Assembly (NCBI RefSeq): GCF_963506605.1
Contig: NC_083281.1
Coordinates: 42,966,001 to 43,030,000 of the forward strand
DNA: 64,000 nucleotides
Direction: 5' to 3'
Source: Zootoca vivipara
Lineage: Eukaryota
Every line of letters starts with the position of its first letter. Position 1 is the first letter of the stretch. The translations under genes and the position numbers were made by a program. The notes under the pieces are model-generated. The model was given only the letters and a program-made list of their open reading frames with translations, was not told where the DNA came from and ran no database searches. Shown here one piece after another: positions 19,973 through 43,679 of the stretch.

Positions 19973-20186
19973 CAGTGGTACCTCGGGTTACAAACACCTC
20001 GGGTTACAAATACTTCAGGTTACAGACGTTGCTAACCCGGAAGTAGTACCTCAGGTTAAGAACTTTGCCCCAGGATGAGAACAGAAATCGTGCGGTGGCA
20101 GCAGGAGGCCCCATTAGCTAAAGTGATATCTCAGGTTAAGAACTGATCTCCGGAACAAATTAAGTTCGTAACCAGAGGTACCACTG
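19973..20186. mobile_element. Tc1/mariner (Tigger-like) MITE
   Basis: TIRs CAGTGGTACCTC / GAGGTACCACTG; TA on the left flank. Confidence 0.8.
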
Positions 20187-32800: not shown

Positions 32801-34846
32801 TGGCAATCCATCACATTCAATATTCTTATTTGTTTTTAATCGTATTTGCATTGCTTATTTCTTACGCTGTGTTTTACTATCTTAAAATTTGAATTCAAAT
32901 TGCAATACAATAAAACCCAAATATGAGAAGTAAAAGAAGCAATGCAAAAAAACCAAAAACCCAGTGTCTAGCACAGCATATTACAATTACTACAATAGGC
33001 AGAAACATCACGTGGTCCGCCAAGACCTGCATCACTTTTCAAGTGGTCTGTGGGGTGGGGGTGGGGAACCACAGGAGGCATTGATTAATCTGGTTGCTGC
33101 CTCTCCTAGAGCAAATTAATTGCAGCCCAAACAGAACCACTGACCTGTGCACACCCGTCCTGGGTCAGGCACCTGTTTCAAGAAGGACAGGTTTCTGTGC
33201 TATCAGTCACCAAAGTTTCTCATTGAGGAGCTATAATTATTGTTATTATTAAGAAAATGTATTTGTCCCTTTTTCTTGCTACTAGAAACTCAAAGTGATT
33301 TACAAAAACAAAACAAAACAAAAATCACATGCATACAATTAAAACAAAGGAGAAAATATATTAACACACACAACTTTAAGAGGCCATAGATCATTAACAG
33401 AGGAATGTTTTTGGGTGGCACCTAAAGATATGAAACCATGGTGCCAGGTGAGCCTCCCTGGGGAGAGCATTCCACAAGCGGAGCCAACACAGAAAAGGCC
33501 TGGACCCCCTGTGGAGCTAATGCACTGAAATAGAAGTACACCAGCTATGCTTGTCATGTCCGTGGGGGAGAACCACAGCTCAATGCCAGAGTCCATGCTT
33601 TGCATGCAAGTCCCAGGTTCAATCTTTAGTTAGCACCTTCGATTAGAAGGCTACCGTAGGAAGGAAAGAAACCACAGAGCTGCATGCCAGATGGAACAAC
33701 CAACATGGTGCCCTCCAGATATTGTGGGACTATAACCCCCATCATACTGGACTACTGGCTGTGCTAGCTGGGGCCGATACGAGCTTGAGCCCAACACCAT
33801 CTGGAGGTCTCCACATTCCTTGTCATCAGACTAGACAGTAGTAGGCTTGATGAGCCAGCATAAAGCAGCTTCATCTATCTAAACAGATCAGAAGACCAAC
33901 AGCCATTGGCAAAAACACTGCATTTATTTGAAAAATGATACCCATGACAAATGTGAACCAGCCTTGGAAAAATATCTTGCTATATGGATTTAGAGATCAA
34001 AATCAAATATATGTGCATGTGTGCAAACGCACACTTTGACTCTGTTACTTTGGGCTCTGATTGATTGTATTTTACAGAGAAGGGTTGCCTGGTGCCATCA
34101 CTACAAATCTTCCTGTGACAGGCAAAAGCATTCCTTTTTATCCAGGCCTTTGGCTTCTAATTATCTATGGCTTTTTGCACGGGTGGGGCTAATGTAGAGA
34201 TTTTTCTTTGCTGGTTTTAACCTGTGTTTTTGTTTTTTTGCTTAAAATGTTCTAAGTCATTTTGAGTTGCTGTGGCAAAAAAAAAGCAACTAACAAATTT
34301 AATAAACAATAATGCTTCTACAGCTTTTTACTTTTGGGATGTAGCGCTGCAATCAGGGCTAGAATCATGTTAAAAAGGAAGACCAGAACGCTCAGAATGC
34401 CACATAGACCCCACAAAAGCACATCAGGTTAAGTGCTATGCAGCCTGCCCGTGAACTAACACATAACCAGAAGCAAACCACAGGATGTATTTACATGGCC
34501 TGCCTTTCATTTTCTCATTCTCATTCATGCACATGAAGACACAGGAAGCCAAGTTTTTCATCTCTGACAGCTAAGATTTTAGCTCTATACCTGACTAACT
34601 CCTCCGTAACGACCTCAAGCACACGATATCAGATGTATTCATTATGCCCATAAATCAGCTCCTCTCACTGCCTGCCCCCCAGCTTCCCATCAGAATTACA
34701 GAGCATATCCAAGTGTCATAGAAGCTATCAGAAATCAGAGAGTTTTTTTAAAAAAAAAGTTGTCAAGATTTATAAGCTACACAGATTCTGTGTATGGTGA
34801 CCGGAATGCCAATGATTTCTACAGATCACCACCATGGGTATCATTA

Positions 34847-35142
34847 CAGTGGTACCTCGACTTCCGAATGACTCGACAACCGAATTTTTCGACTTGCGAA
34901 TGGGGCAAATGGCCGCATGCTTACGAATTTCTCAACATCCAAACGGAAACTGCAGCGGTTTTAGATAGGTTTTTTTTTACTTACGAATTTTTAGATGGGG
35001 TTGCTTCGACTTACGAATTGTTCTGTTTCCAATGCATTCCTATGGGAAATTGCGTTTCCAATGGCGCTTTTCGACTTACGAATTTTTCAAACTACGAAGG
35101 TGCCTTCGGAACGGATTAAATTCGTAAGTCAAGGCACCACTG
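34847..35142. mobile_element. Tc1/mariner (Tigger-like) MITE
   Basis: TA-CAGTGGTACCTCGACTT ... AAGTCAAGGCACCACTG-TA; internal (ACTTACGAA) repeats. Confidence 0.85.
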
Positions 35143-37945
35143 TACCTGACTTTCCTACAATGCTATGGCTGGGTCTGCAAGCCAGCAGACACAACCGTGC
35201 TACTACCTGCAAAGAGGACTGTAAAATGAAGCCTAGTCTCTCAACCTTTCTCTCCATCTGAAGTGGTGGATTGCACCTTACTATAAAACCACACCTTAAG
35301 TTGCAGCATTATCAACGTGACAAGAAAAAGGAAGAACTGAGCAGAGAAGCAGCTCAGAGAAGCTTCAGGTTGAAAAGGGAAGAGTGTGTGGTCCTCACAA
35401 TGAGAGCAAGCTCTGAACTCTGGGCCTGTTCTATAAGGCAAGCTTGTCCAAAATCACACAATGGAATCGGAGGCAAAGTATGCCTACAGAGGAGAAAGGC
35501 TTACTCTATTTGTGCTCAATATGTATATTTGCAATTAAAAACAAATGTTACAAGGAGAGAAAGAGAGAGATCAGAAGACCTAAGAAGACATAGTTCTCCA
35601 CATGCTGAAGACCTGTGAAAAAGCTACACAGTGACCCTCTGGGGCTGGAAAGCTTTTTCAAGTCCTAGGTCAAAGATATCTCAAGTTCTTGGACATGAGC
35701 ATCAAATTGCCATATATTCCCCCAAAAAATCTTATTCGAGTAGCTGCTAGTAGAATTCCTATAGCTTTCTCTCATTAAGGGAACTTGCTTACATAGACTT
35801 CTGGAGACAGAGACAGAGCAGAGGTGAGGGTTACACCCCTGCTCCAGCTACTGATGACACCAGAGTCAGAGGACTGGGAAAACTTTGTCCCACCTCAACA
35901 TTTTAGCCAGCGGCAGACCTGTGAACTTCCCCCACAGCTGTCAAGTGGAGCCACAGCAGAAAGCAAGGAGCTGTTAAGGTGCCAAAGCGCTGCACCATCT
36001 TTTTCTGCATCATGGAACACAAGTGCCATTATTCTCATTTGAGAGGAGCAAGTATAGTGGAAGCCCCCCCCCAATATCTCATCTCCTACAATGGCCACTG
36101 CCAATCTTTTTTTCCTTCATACTCAGCTCCCACATAAGCCACATTGAGATAGTAGCTGTAGCTAATCATGTTTAGATAATGATGGTGAAGTGCTTCAAAA
36201 ACTCTATAGCACTGTAGCCATGCTCACTAATAAGCAGAGATAATGGTTTGCAATGGCAGAGGTGGGCATAGCCAGGTTCCCGCCAGATCCAACGATAGTC
36301 GTCCCTGAACGCTGACCACATTGAGTGGGGCTGATGGGAGCTGTAATCCAATAGCATCCAGAGGGTACCACAAAGACTATCCTGATCTGTGGTACCACGC
36401 TTTCTCAGGGGGCAAAAAGCAAATTCTCCTGATAGAACTTTTATACACAAAACAAGTTGCCTGTTTTGCAGGGTGAAGGCTGCCTGAGCCCTCATATTTC
36501 TCTTCACTCTGCAAAGGAGCCCACCTGTCATTCCCGAACAAGGATTATTTTCATCCCTACTTCAACCCCCTGAAAAAGTGCTCTTTTGACTGCATGTGGG
36601 CTGCCAGCCACTCCTGGGCCAAGAGTCCTTCCTTCCTGCCCAGCACTCAGCACCACCACAGGAAAGCCCTCATGGGTTGCAGCCTTTCCTTGATCTATCA
36701 TCCCCATCCAGAGAAACCAGCAAAGCCAAGCACAGATCTCTAGAGCAGGAAGGGATGGCAGTGTGGGAAATTATGGCATGCTGCAGCAGCCCTACAAGGG
36801 GCCAGGTAGAGAAGCTGAAGCAGCGCACATGCCGGAAACAAAGCAAGGGAGTGGAGGGAGTCTCAGCTGGGGGCAGGCAGGGAAAGAGAGAAAAGAGGGC
36901 TTGAACGCCCCCCCCATTTTTCTGATTGCAACAGCATTAAATGGACATGAGACCAAAGCAGCCAGCAGGGTGTGTATGAAGAGAGATGCAAGAGAACAAG
37001 ATGAAAGGATCAAAGTAGAGGGGCAACATCAGTGAGCAGGGGGCCGGTTTCTGAAAGGGAGGAGTAGGCCAGACTGCAGACGAGGGCAAACCTGAGGGTG
37101 AGGGAGAGAAGCAGCCATGGCCAAAGCAATTCTGTCCTCGCCCTGCAAGGAACAGAGGGAGAGTCTTCAAGCGTTTCTTCTTGTGGCGGCGGCGGCGGCG
37201 GCGGGGGGGGGGGACCTCCATGCCGGTGATGAGCGATTGATTTCCGCCACGGAGGTGTTCAGGGGGTTGTCTCCGCAAACCCGTATCCCAGTGAGAGGCC
37301 GGAGATGGGGAAGGAGGGGCGTGGTGGCTTACCGACCAAAAAGCTTGCAAAGGGGCACGTTGGTCCCCCCTCCCCGATTCCCCGTCCCTCTCTCCGCCGC
37401 CCTAAACACCGTATGCCAGGTCTACTAACCCCCTCGGCTCCGCGCCGCCTGCAGTCCTACGTGCCCTAAGCAGCCTTCCTGGGAAGGCCACCCCGTGGAG
37501 CTCAGTGAAGCTTACTCCCAAGAAAGCCTGTGCGCCAACTGCAACGGGAGTCCAAGGAGTACGTAGAGGGCTGGGCTGCTGTGGCTGGCCCTTGAACGAG
37601 AGGCGAAGCTCCCGCCGCGGGAGGACGGGGAGGGCTCATCTACAGGACGCCGATTTGTCAGCCAGACCCTCTGCCAGGAGACTCCATTCCATTCCCTACT
37701 GGGCTGCCGCGGCTGAGCCATTCATAAGAGCGAAAGCTGCTGCCGTAGGGGAGGAGGAGGAGAGGCTGCGGGAAGGGCTCCTGCTCAGGACACCAGCTGG
37801 TCAGCCAGCCAGCCATGCCCTCTGCCAGCAGACTCCACTCCAACCTTACCTACCCTTCTTCACCCCCGCCCCGGGAAAGAGAGGGTTTCGCGCGCACCGC
37901 GGTGGGGGTAGGTGGGCAGGCAGGGGGCGGCCTGCCCCTTCTTAC

Positions 37946-38199: not shown

Positions 38200-38340
38200 G
38201 GAGTGCCGGTACAGGATTGGTGAGCTCGAGAGGCCCGCACCCCTCCCTTCGGTGCGAAATCAGCCCCGCCCCTCACCTACTCGAGGGCGAATGAAAGGCC
38301 GGCGCAAGGTATGATTGGCAGGCTCCGGCTGACGTCACTT
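38200..38340 (-). promoter_or_regulatory. STK40 proximal promoter: two CCAAT boxes (38216-38220, 38314-38318), GC box (~38264-38271), full CRE TGACGTCA (38330-38337); YY1-like AAGATGGCG motifs on both strands at ~38104-38150
   Basis: Motifs read directly at the edge of the CpG island. Confidence 0.65.
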
Positions 38341-38379
38341 TAAATGCCAGATGGACTATATCAATCATTCTGTATTACA

Positions 38380-38604
38380 ATAAAAAAATTCCTTCAGTAG
38401 CACCTTAAAGACCAACTAAGTTTATATTTTGGTATGAGCTTTCGTGTGCATGCACACTTCTTCAGATACACAGTGTGATTAATAGTGTGCATGCACACGA
38501 AAGCTCATACCAAAATATAAACTTAGTTGGTCTTTAAGGTGCTACTGAAGGAATTTTTTTATTTTGCTTCGACTCAGACCAACACGGCTACCCACCTGTA
38601 ACTA
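38380..38604. mobile_element. Penelope-like element remnant with inverted arms and 13-bp TSD
   Basis: TSD ATTCTGTATTACA at 38367-38379 and 38605-38617; perfect 80-bp inverted repeat 38379-38458 / 38484-38563; sequence resembles reptile Penelope termini and contains a hammerhead core. Confidence 0.8.
38432..38469 (-). ncRNA. Minimal type I hammerhead ribozyme motif
   Basis: GUAU-CUGAAGA-A-GUGUG-CAUG-CACAC-GAAA-GCUC-AUAC: stem I GUAU/AUAC, CUGANGA box, stem II, GAAA box, very short stem III, UC cleavage site. Confidence 0.8.
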
Positions 38605-39614
38605 ATTCTGTATTACAGTATTTCTCTCTCGGAGCAACGTGTTTAAATATAATTAATTATTCCGTTTATTAAAAAAGCAAAACACATGAGAAACCTGGCC
38701 CGGCCTTTCCACCAGCTCTGCTCCTAGAAGGAAAAGGGGCTTTATTATTTATTTATTTTTATAACTCTTATCTTCCCACCTTTTCCTCTCAGACGCTCAA
38801 GGCGGCGCACATGTTTTATGGTCGAGTAGGGATTTGAACCCTGGTCTCCATGATCCTAGTCTGGTACAACACCCTGGTAGATCAGGGTTCAAATCCCCAC
38901 TTAGCCATGAAGCTCATTGTGTGACCTTCAGCAAATCACTACCTCTCAGCCTCACCTACCTTAGGGGGTTGTTGTGGGGATTAAATGACGAGAACCATGT
39001 CCTTTACACCACCTTCAGCTCCTTGGAGAAAAAAAGGTGGGCAACAAATGCAGTAAAAAAATATTGATGGGGCCTTTGCTTGCTCCTTATTTGGCAGCCT
39101 CAAATTGCCATATCTCTTAACTAGTTTTTTAATAAATGGTGACAAGCAAGTAACCCAGAGCAACCCTCAGCCACTTTTGTAACTGCTCCTGGTGAGTCAT
39201 GCTTGGGTGGTGGGGGCAGGAGGAGGAAGGACAAACAGCAGCTCTCTCTCAGTTGAGCACTTGCATCATGCAAGCATGACTCACTCTATGGGAGCCTCAA
39301 CTGCCACTTGTGCAAACAACAGACTCCAGGGAGGTAACAAAAGAGTGTTAGTCTTCCACAATACTGCCGGCATTAGGGGAAGTGGGGCTGCAGTCACCAA
39401 ACCTGACTTGAGCACGCTGCCAGATTTGGAGACTCTTTCTGCAAACAGCTCTGTGTTCTGGGTGTGCAACTCCCTCCTGCGATCATTGGAAGGGGTACTC
39501 AGCACCGTTTAGAAATAAAGCCAGGCGCTTCCCACGCTTTGTCTAGTGCTAACTGAAGTGGATAGAAATTACTTTTTCTAGAAGTTGTTGCAGCAGCCAA
39601 GAATCCTGAATTAT

Positions 39615-39835: not shown

Positions 39836-41239
39836 AAAACAAATGCCATATATGTGCAGTCTGACTAGAGACTCTCAAAATACATGTAGCTGCAAGCAGA
39901 AAGTCGGGAGACGGTTCAGTATGTCCAATCTAGCATAGCAAATATGGAGCACAGAGAATTCCGTGGCCCTCATTGGCTCCTTAATGTGATGTGGCCAATA
40001 TGCCACTTTTTTACCAGACACACACACCAACATGTGCCGGGCAGCCTCTGCACAGCCTTTGATTCACTTTGTAAACTTGCACCTGCTCCATCAGGTGAAG
40101 GGGCCGTGTTCATTCCCTGTAATACAGATGAGTCACGTGCATGCAATGGGGTGAAAGGGTAGCTGTGGGGCCCACATTGCTGCACCATTCAGCACACTTT
40201 AAGATTGATCCACACACGAACATTAACTCTTTTGGGCTGTAAGATTTGGGGAAGTAAAGCAAAGCTGGTGCAGACAGGCAGGCTGTCTGCTGTGTCCTCA
40301 GGGGCCCTGGAAAGCTCTGAATCATCAGCCCAAAGGCATTGAAATCCAGCTCCTCTCCTGTGCCAGTTACCCCTCAACATGTGCTAGGCAAGTCAGCAGA
40401 CTTGGCAGGAAGAGCAGCTTTCAATGCCTGCTGGAGGAAGGAGGGGATGCTGCTCTGTCATCTGCCTAGAGTAGCTGAACTAAATGGTGTGAAATAACTG
40501 TGTTGGCCTGTTGCCAATACAGTGCCTCTTTTGTGGGGAAGATGGTGAAGCTGCAGAACTGCAAGTGTTCCTGGATGACACTGGTTATCAGGATACACTT
40601 CAGTCTGGGTTTAGGCCTGGTTTCGGGAATGAATTGGCCTTGGTCACCTTCATGGATGACCTGTAATGGGAGAAATATGGTGATGCATGGCCCTGTTACA
40701 ACTGCTTGATATCTCAGCAGCTTTAGATAGCATTGGCCATGGTAACCTACTGGATCACCTGAGTGGGATGGGTGATGGAGACACTGTATTAGTGGTTCCA
40801 CTCATACTTGATCGGTTGTGTCCAGACAATAACACTGGGTGGGGGACTGCTCTTTGACATTGTTCTGGCATTGATATACAAAGCCTTGAGCAACTTGGGC
40901 CTAAAATACCTGAAGCCTGAACTGTTATATTCCAGCTTGACCACTGAAATCCAGAGGGGTGATGTTAGTTGTCCCCCCATGTTACAGACAGACATTTAGA
41001 AATCAGACATTTAGCACCACTGGTCCCATAGCCTCTGATGTACCTGCTTACTCTGCGCCTTGTAACCCGAGTTCTGTACCAAACTGACTTATGCATTAAA
41101 ACCTTTGGAAGGAATGGTGTTGAGAGTTCTAGTTCCTCATCCAGTCGAGAGCCAGGACAATCCCCAGGCATTGCTTATCCATGGTCAAACTATTCTCTCA
41201 TAACAAAAGAGCCAGTTAGCAGCAACCTGCCTCATAGTA

Positions 41240-41406
41240 CAGTCATACCTCGGTTTAAGTACGCTTCGCTTTGAGTACTTTCAGTTTAAGTACTCCGCAG
41301 ACCCGTCTGGAACGGATTAATCCACTTTCCATTACTTTCAATGGGAAAGTTCGCTTCAGGTTAAGTACGCTGGAACCAATTGTGTATTTAAACCGAGGTA
41401 CTACTG
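41240..41406. mobile_element. Tc1/mariner (Tigger-like) MITE
   Basis: TA-CAGTCATACCTCGGTTTAA ... TTAAACCGAGGTACTACTG-TA. Confidence 0.8.
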
Positions 41407-42372
41407 TACCTGCTGCCCACTTTGGAGTGGGGCTGCCAGTTCAACTAGGTAATGCCCATGGGTGAAACGCAAGGGGGAACTGAGCAACAGTTATGGGATG
41501 TTAGTAAGGCTGCAGCTGCCCTCTTTCATTATTTTCAGAAGAGAAGGCATTAGACTACACATGTGCTTCTGGCACAAAGAGACGATGCCCAGCAGCTGTA
41601 TTATGAACTGAATGCACTCTGTCAGATGCAACTTCAGATCAAACAAGAGGATGAGTGGCAGAAGGGCTCAATGACAGGGGTTTATACTTTGCAATTCTTG
41701 GGCATCTCCTACTGGAAAGATGTGATGCAGCAGAACTAAGAAAGCTTTCTCTGCCCAAGGCTTTGGAAAACGACCACCATTAGTCAGCACTGGGCTAAAT
41801 CAGACTCCTACAACTCCCATTAGTCCCACCCAGCAGGAGCAATAGGCAGGGATGATGTGAACTGTAGTCCAGCCTCTGGAGGGCACCAGAGTGGAAAAGG
41901 CTAGGCAAGATAGACCAAGTTCCTGATATTATTAGTACATGTTCATATTGCATTATTGAGGTTCTAGAGCCAGCGTGGTGTAGCGATTAACGCTGGACTA
42001 GGACCTGGGGGACCAGGGTTCAAATCCTCACTCAGCCATGACATTGGGCCAGTCACTTCTTCAGCCTAACCTACCTCACAGGGCTGTTGTGGGGATGAAA
42101 TGGGGGAAGAGAACTGTATATGCCACCTTGAGCTCCTTGGCAGAAAGGTGAGATATAAATGTAAATAAATAAATGTCAAGCTCTGCACAAGGACTGAGTG
42201 CTCTCTCATTTGTAATTTAACCTCGGCTCAGCTGCTACTGGTAGTTTTCTCAGCCTGCAAGTCCTGGTTAAAGAGGGATGATCTGAGGATATTGAACGTA
42301 CAAAAAGCTGCTGGTTGGTCTGGTGAGAAACAGTTTGTAAAAGGAAAGTGGATCTTAAAATTTTGTAAAGAG

Positions 42373-42697: not shown

Positions 42698-43069
42698 TCA
42701 TTTGTAGCTCTGCTTAAGGAACTCCTTCCTGCCCCTGTCTCGGCCACCAAAAGTGCGAACTCTGTGAATGAGCTGCAGCTGTTTCTCAATGGTGGTTGTG
42801 ATGTCCATGTCATCAGGGATGTGGACATAGCGGACGTTCCTTCCCGTCACAAACAGATCATCCAGCCAGGTGGAATGGCCACACCGATCAGTGAACGTCG
42901 CCTCGGACAGGCGGATGTTCATGAAGGCGTCAACGTTGGTGATGCGGCCGACAGCCTTGCTCTCATCCCGCAGCTCCACAGTGGTGACGTGTCCATGGAG
43001 GCCCTGCAGCAGGATGACAAGGCTGTTCTCCGAGATGGTGCGCTCCTTCACGGAGTGGCTGATCTCCAT
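42698..43069 (-). CDS. LSM10: U7 snRNP-specific Sm-like protein LSm10, single coding exon, 123 aa
   Basis: [37 protein letters not shown]...[10 protein letters not shown]...[15 protein letters not shown] (Sm1/Sm2 motifs); acceptor ttccag at 43090; Kozak GCCATGG. Confidence 0.97.
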
Positions 43070-43679
43070 GGCGTGGCACCACCTGATGGCTGGAACAGAA
43101 ACAGGAGGAAGAAGAGAGTTCAGTGAGTTAGCCCCATTCATCGCTTTCTCTTGTGCTATATAGAGCACAGGTCTGTGCTTGCACTGTGCTAAGCATGGAA
43201 TTTGGCTCATGACTTTTAGAATCACAGTTCTTGTTCGTTTTGCTTGGAGAGTGCACAGGTGAAACCTCAAAACCCAAACTGAGGCTCTGCAGGATCTCTA
43301 AAGGCAAGCTTCAGTACAGAACTGTGTGTGTTGGTTGGCCTCTCCTTAGCAGCCAGGCAGTAAGAATCAAAAGCCCATGATCTATCATCTGTCCCAAAGA
43401 ATCTGCACATGCCCAGAGGCCAACTGCTCAGCAACCAAACATTCTCACTTGGAAGGAGCAGCAGTAAAATAGTGAGAAAGCTGAATTGTTTCTCTTTCCC
43501 ATAATGTATTTATGTATATGTGCTCCAGTGTAAGTTGCTGCAAGACCTGTTTGGTGACAAGCAACTACCGGTAGTAAGTTTAGTACAAATGAAAATAAAT
43601 AAATGGTAGACCTGGTGTCGGTGCCACTGAGAGAGGAATACAGTACAGTACTGTTACACTGGGTCCAGACTCTTGAGCT

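Follow-up and report, generated by a model that had tools for sequence, protein, structure and literature searches.

The window analysed here, a stretch of 64,000 nucleotides from the Zootoca vivipara genome, contains a 225-bp insert made of two head-to-head pieces of the 5' end of a retroelement, one with the tail of the element and one without it. It is a real, young and ordinary insertion of the known Penelope class. The family, the parent ORF, the arm coordinates, the TSD, the copy numbers and the rule of one tailed and one tail-less arm are all shown. Taken as a whole, it is considered highly probable that this is a young two-armed insertion of a Neptune-type Penelope-like element (PLE), likely formed by nicking and priming on both strands, and that its hammerhead is likely an inactive passenger without a role in STK40 or LSM10. 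The family is of more importance than the locus, as thousands of near-identical stubs record where Penelope reverse transcription starts and stops in vivo.

The insert and its parent element

A preliminary description of this DNA had claimed a 13-bp TSD around a 225-bp insert with a perfect 80-bp inverted repeat and a 25-nt spacer, and each of these was recovered in place (Table 1). The repeat is the strongest of 19 in the window (at least 20 nt, arms within 400 bases). Positions in the element are numbered from the A (+1) that lies about 30 bases past a TATA-like run, which places the hammerhead at +4 to +41 and the start codon at +141; the final ~41 bp of the tailed arm form the PLE tail, whose end directly precedes that codon. 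The insertion had also been described as recent, and the few mismatches to an intact full-length copy, L113 (none in 93 nt of one arm, one in 121 nt of the other), indeed mark it as young. A MITE, with terminal inverted repeats at both ends and a fixed short TSD, was considered and rejected, since the 41-bp tail lies outside the repeat, the ends are ragged, the TSD is variable and the parent is a retroelement. Four other inverted-repeat elements of the window, at 38815-38911, 19973-20186, 34845-35144 and 41237-41409, are tRNA-like repeat and short-terminal-inverted-repeat elements unrelated to the Penelope family.

Table 1. Positions in the window of the insert, its parts and the neighbouring host features
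Feature	Position	Strand	Description
CRE palindrome	38330..38337		only one in the window; edge of the GC-rich putative STK40 promoter
Left TSD	38367..38379	+	13 bp; last base also fits the arm end
Insert	38380-38604		225 bp, between the TSD copies
Tail-less arm	38379..38471	-	PLE unit +2 to +94; identical to intact copy L113
Inverted repeat arms	38379-38458 / 38484-38563		80 nt, 100% complementary, 25 nt spacing
Minimal type I hammerhead	38432..38469	-	unit +4..+41; architecture after PMC4209133
Junction filler	38472..38483		12 nt; first half is a local copy of element sequence
Tailed arm	38484..38604	+	unit +15 to +135; 1 mismatch to L113; without CUGANGA
Right TSD	38605..38617	+	13 bp
Open frame with LSM10	42701..43297	-	

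The Penelope origin claimed for the insert was borne out by a parent with an intact RT and GIY-YIG ORF in the same genome. It was reached by walking upstream from related copies, which led to a GIY-YIG C-terminus and then to three full-length pLTR-ORF-pLTR copies (L111, L113 and L124) that are ~99% alike; L113 and L124 have uninterrupted 901-aa ORFs, and all three are candidates for active sources. The parent unit is 3,002 bp long and its 901-aa ORF matches RVT_1 (PF00078, 6e-12) and GIY-YIG (PF01541, 4.6e-05). The features of an EN+ PLE were found throughout: a single ORF with RT plus GIY-YIG endonuclease at its C-terminus, pLTRs in tandem arrangement in the three full-length copies with the hammerhead inside the pLTR, and a 30-40 bp tail at one end together with an inverted 5' copy and a TSD. 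The ORF also has a linker motif, C-x4-C-xx-C, at residue 761, which fits the CX2-5CxxC form between RT and EN described in PMC8557442 as common to Neptune and Nematis; on this linker, which Nematis also has, the parent is classed as a putative Neptune-type element. A PDB sequence search with the PLE ORF gave 0 matches.

When the insert was compared with its own genome (1.44 Gb) there were 1,548 candidates, of which 40 were scored, near-full-length matches with 93-100% identity. Exact matches numbered 4,610 for a 27-mer of the tail and 20,711 for a 26-mer of the arm, and the reversed controls gave 0. A retrozyme-like head-to-tail array of this family was also observed on contig 1 (G000:C1:2777821-2779687), where four hammerhead cores lie in tandem with a 598-bp period.

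The hammerhead and the host genes

The minus-strand hammerhead proposed at 38469-38432 was confirmed letter by letter, and its minimal type I architecture is complete, with the core boxes, stems I and II and the palindromic 15.2-16.2 all present. It is made up of a 4-bp stem I, CUGAAGA, an extra A, a palindromic stem II, GAAA and a palindromic AGCU that replaces stem III, and the predicted cut lies between 38436 and 38435 of the minus strand. The opposite arm, which starts at unit +15, lacks the CUGANGA box just as had been claimed. The suggested check against Rfam failed to support the motif: in 2 kb that gave 45 matches at E<=10 there was no hammerhead family among the matches, which is unsurprising as stem III is absent. 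The miRNA matches from the same search were below gathering scores and were discarded as generic hairpin matches. Exact matches to the 34-nt hammerhead core number 13,793 genome-wide, compared with 0 for the reversed control, and thus the motif is not a product of chance.

Predictions of folding depended on the context. For the isolated motif, formation of the stems is predicted (p 0.64-0.98), as it is within the element's own 5' end. In the minus-strand read-through RNA the predicted pairing probability of stems I and II is about 0, and the hammerhead fold is predicted to be less stable than the hairpin by 43 kcal/mol. In such an RNA the complementary arm is made first, as it lies upstream of the hammerhead. 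Any transcript through the site is predicted to form an 80-bp duplex that buries the ribozyme, and this duplex would be a substrate for ADAR.

STK40 and LSM10 were named by matches to PDB chains 5l2q (1.2e-40) and 6v4x (1.8e-55) respectively. Both genes are on the minus strand, like the hammerhead, so that the sense orientation claimed for the ribozyme strand holds. The claimed distances, ~30 bp to the CRE and ~4 kb to the LSM10 polyA signal, also stand: the CRE is separated from the TSD by 29 bp and from the insert by 42 bp, and the nearest minus-strand AATAAA past LSM10 is at about 42373, ~3.8 kb from the insert. A regulatory role was a further proposal, in which the insertion would modulate STK40 or LSM10 read-through by ribozyme cleavage or by a hairpin or cruciform at the promoter edge. 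This is most improbable, even with an insert 29-42 bp from the CRE and sense to both genes, and with a DNA hairpin predicted at -93.9 kcal/mol. The suggested cleavage of LSM10 read-through RNA is not supported, because the order of the arms, the near-zero stem probability and the predicted penalty in the read-through fold make it unlikely in the modelled RNA. Minimal hammerheads were reported as inactive in monomeric form and weak as dimers in the activity data of PMC4209133, and the text of PMC11167929 on the ribozyme describes a hammerhead that is inactive without the element's protein. The position of the insert is also easily accounted for: with one identical core per ~104 kb of the 1.44 Gb genome a promoter-adjacent copy is expected and needs no special explanation, and if there are ~20,000 promoters, of the order of 100 cores would lie within 500 bp of one by chance. 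The palindrome may have a structural effect on STK40, and the locus itself is probably neutral.

Arm layout, copies with A-to-G marks and the origin of the inverted arm

Layout across the family was surveyed in 100 exact tail matches, the first of the 4,610 and all from contig 1, of which 97 were kept. L204, whose region was truncated, was left out, as were L259, which has the same structure as L258, and L246, which is the same insertion as L245. The sample is biased to exact-tail copies and to one contig. L258 and L259 lie 5.3 kb apart at about 19.71 Mb of contig 1 and are probably a local duplication. An inverted outer arm was present in 65 of the 97 insertions, ending at +85 to +105 in 57 of the 65 and carrying the tail in one, and the tailed ends of the 97 were centred on +134 to +136. 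TSD-like duplications were mostly 12-15 bp, with none found in 15/97. The 5' ends of 23 of the 97 tailed arms fell at +1 to +6, equivalent to 3.8 per nt as opposed to 0.6 in the bins on either side, and so did those of 17 among 61 adjacent inverted arms. Of 46 clean pairs, 29 had an inverted arm that outreached the tailed arm on the 5' side by >5 nt, with the tail found only on the latter, and it follows that neither arm is a plain copy of the other. The insert in the window is one of those in which the inverted arm (+2) reaches further 5' than the tailed arm (+15); its layout is the usual one of the family, in which 57 of the 97 sampled have an inverted arm with no tail, and has already been published for Penelope elements. 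Many junctions in the family hold short local copies of element sequence. Some 5'-truncated copies (L077, L081 and L046) have unrelated sequence at the junction, possibly from captured or secondary insertions. A spliced template was suggested by the likeness of +2/+3 to a 3' splice site and was rejected, as no upstream exon was shared among the junctions.

The family data favour priming from both cut ends. The element protein would nick both strands 13 bases apart and each end would prime reverse transcription, one cDNA beginning at a tail-less internal site (~+94) and the other at the end of the tail (~+135). Both cDNAs would run toward the 5' end of the RNA, whose putative start is at +1 to +3, ~30 bases past the TATA-like run, and copying would often stop near that point; the two cDNA ends, once trimmed, would be linked head to head across a short filler. 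Studies of an anole PLE protein lend support to such a scheme, as it nicks and extends both strands in vitro, has two internal RT start sites that bound the tail and is predicted to dimerise, and insertion does not need hammerhead cleavage, according to the relevant sections of PMC11167929. Twin priming is also supported by arm-private sequence and by L229 and L169, where arms of different subfamilies share a TSD; both loci show the same pairing, which could also come from a single source whose two pLTRs differ. Among 55 pairs, private variants were confined to one arm in 57 instances and shared in 2. Both arms of an insertion had the same base at the polymorphic position +49 in 46 of the 47 pairs compared, which counts against a simple picture of two random RNAs, and the age structure of the subfamilies would also give such agreement. 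A search of the open-access literature found no report of twin priming in PLEs.

RNA was examined on a full-length copy with ~6% of each of three runs from one study with the same species label, in which reads from fragmented libraries pool thousands of copies. Depth was high over +1 to +135 and near zero at the 5' end of the ORF, and 63-90% of aligned reads continued into unlike sequence, so that the signal represents host read-through of stubs. No pile-up of read starts or ends was seen at +1 or at the hammerhead cut, a comparison made insensitive by the pooled copies and fragmented libraries; together with the nearly uncovered 5' end of the ORF, this counts against the putative RNA start at +1. 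In a search of sequencing runs no RNA run was listed, and the best matches shared 0.95 of the words, a figure that bears neither way on polymorphism. A-to-G changes at +56 (UAG) and +67 (UAA) were present in 9-39% of the reads in one mate direction, against 1-3% in the opposite one. These may reflect ADAR-type editing, with alleles of the sampled individuals another candidate source; PMC5625713 reports heavy editing of lizard Penelope RNA.

The same changes occur at low frequency in genomic DNA, where +56G was found in 76 arms against 20,711 arm matches. The +56G/+67G double was present in 10 arms of 6 insertions, compared with 1 arm for a G-to-A double control. The two rare changes occur together in L261, L263, L264, L273 and L268, and with +48G in a long copy. 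The first four carry the same A-to-G set on both arms, in two subfamily backgrounds, and L273 has +68G on both arms as well. This suggests one edited RNA copied twice, a source locus with fixed marks or conversion between arms, and L261 and L263 may share one pre-marked source locus. A different pattern is found in L267/L270 (contig 1, G000:C1, about 7045377-7045562), with 17 A-to-G changes on one genomic strand, 8 and 9 on the two arms as counted from a gapped alignment, plus five subfamily markers and a 12-bp TSD. With the search pattern applied genome-wide, no antisense-arm double other than L267 turned up. Its appearance is that of a hairpin RNA hyper-edited by ADAR and then written back into DNA, an assembly artefact being also possible. 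No report of ADAR-edited retroelement copies in genomes was found in the open-access literature. That both nicks were primed on one and the same RNA molecule, with ADAR edits written into germ-line DNA as a barcode, is put forward tentatively and falls somewhat short of the balance of probability. If it is true, thousands of loci in a vertebrate would give an in vivo map of the two RT start sites and of the 5' end of the RNA.

The sharing of marks between arms bears directly on the other ways in which an inverted arm might arise. Both the +49 agreement and the rare A-to-G pairs shared in four insertions count against twin priming, in that they fit arm copying or conversion as well as they fit one RNA used twice. 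An origin of the inverted arm by self-priming or fold-back, for which PMC3846280 is the source of an antisense template model, or homogenisation of the arms after insertion, would draw on this sharing and on centres that are a single 14-bp palindrome (L224, L228, L253, L267 and L273). It is nonetheless unlikely, given that each arm has sequence absent from the other in the 29 of 46 pairs, that L229 and L169 have arms of unlike subfamilies and that private variants are mostly arm-specific, the last of which argues against routine conversion. A very unlikely reading makes the 225-bp palindrome a non-autonomous mobile unit in its own right, with hairpin RNA of an existing palindrome recopied whole by the PLE protein. 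The 40 near-full-length matches would be expected of such a unit, and L267, with its one-strand changes over both arms inside a TSD, requires a hairpin RNA as intermediate that was copied in a single pass, which means that not every palindrome comes from twin priming. However, centres and ends vary from copy to copy with arms from tens of bases to kilobases, the filler in the window did not recur in the 29 other closest copies that were aligned, carried-over flanking sequence was not noticed, and L267 stands alone genome-wide by the pattern used.

As a record of where reverse transcription starts and stops, the stubs make the unsettled origin of inverted ends and tails testable from genomes. 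They also supply host transcripts with many perfect 80-bp duplexes, and a few copies suggest that RNA edits can become inherited DNA, thereby revealing whether one or two template RNAs were used per insertion.

Comparison with known systems

A head-to-head inverted end repeat like the one described here is known from Adineta Pen2a (PMC3846280), from the PLEs in Fig. 2 of PMC8557442 and from Penelope of D. virilis (PMC2377424), and the same three sources describe a 30-40 bp tail on one arm, a TSD and a TATA-like run in the pLTR. PMC3846280 in particular gives an inverted pLTR, a one-sided tail, a TSD and TATA/Inr elements, and proposes self-priming. The arms studied here differ in being only ~95-120 bp long, without an ORF and with a pile-up of ends at +1 to +6. 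In the portions of those papers concerned with the inversion it is explained by self-priming or endonuclease resolution rather than by twin priming. Poseidon_Ac (PAc) of Anolis carolinensis (PMC11167929) also has an RT with a C-terminal GIY-YIG domain, a hammerhead at the pLTR-ORF junction and two internal start sites that bound the tail. The family in Zootoca, in contrast, has a zinc-finger linker of the Neptune/Nematis type, and the end of its tail lies immediately ahead of the start codon; the sites given for PAc are 111-118 nt into the ORF.

The minimal hammerheads of metazoan PLEs described in PMC4209133 share with the present motif a short stem I, a long stem II, an extra base after position 9, G10.1-C11.1 and the palindromic 15.2-16.2, and pairs on opposite strands were also reported there. 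The putative ribozyme here, recognised from its sequence, differs in that its stem II forms a perfect palindrome of 14 nt. Animal non-LTR retrozymes (bioRxiv 10.64898/2026.07.22.740005) are likewise non-coding, derived from PLEs and equipped with a type I hammerhead. They are described there as head-to-tail tandem repeats with a hammerhead per unit, whereas the insert is a single head-to-head pair, and a non-LTR retrozyme was rejected on the basis of its one complete core and head-to-head arms. Finally, hyper-editing of Penelope RNA by ADAR was reported from lizard brain (PMC5625713), and the RNA of this family has a similar strand-skewed A-to-G signal at UAG and UAA; the published edits are in RNA, and in the present genome marks of this kind are found in the DNA of a few copies.
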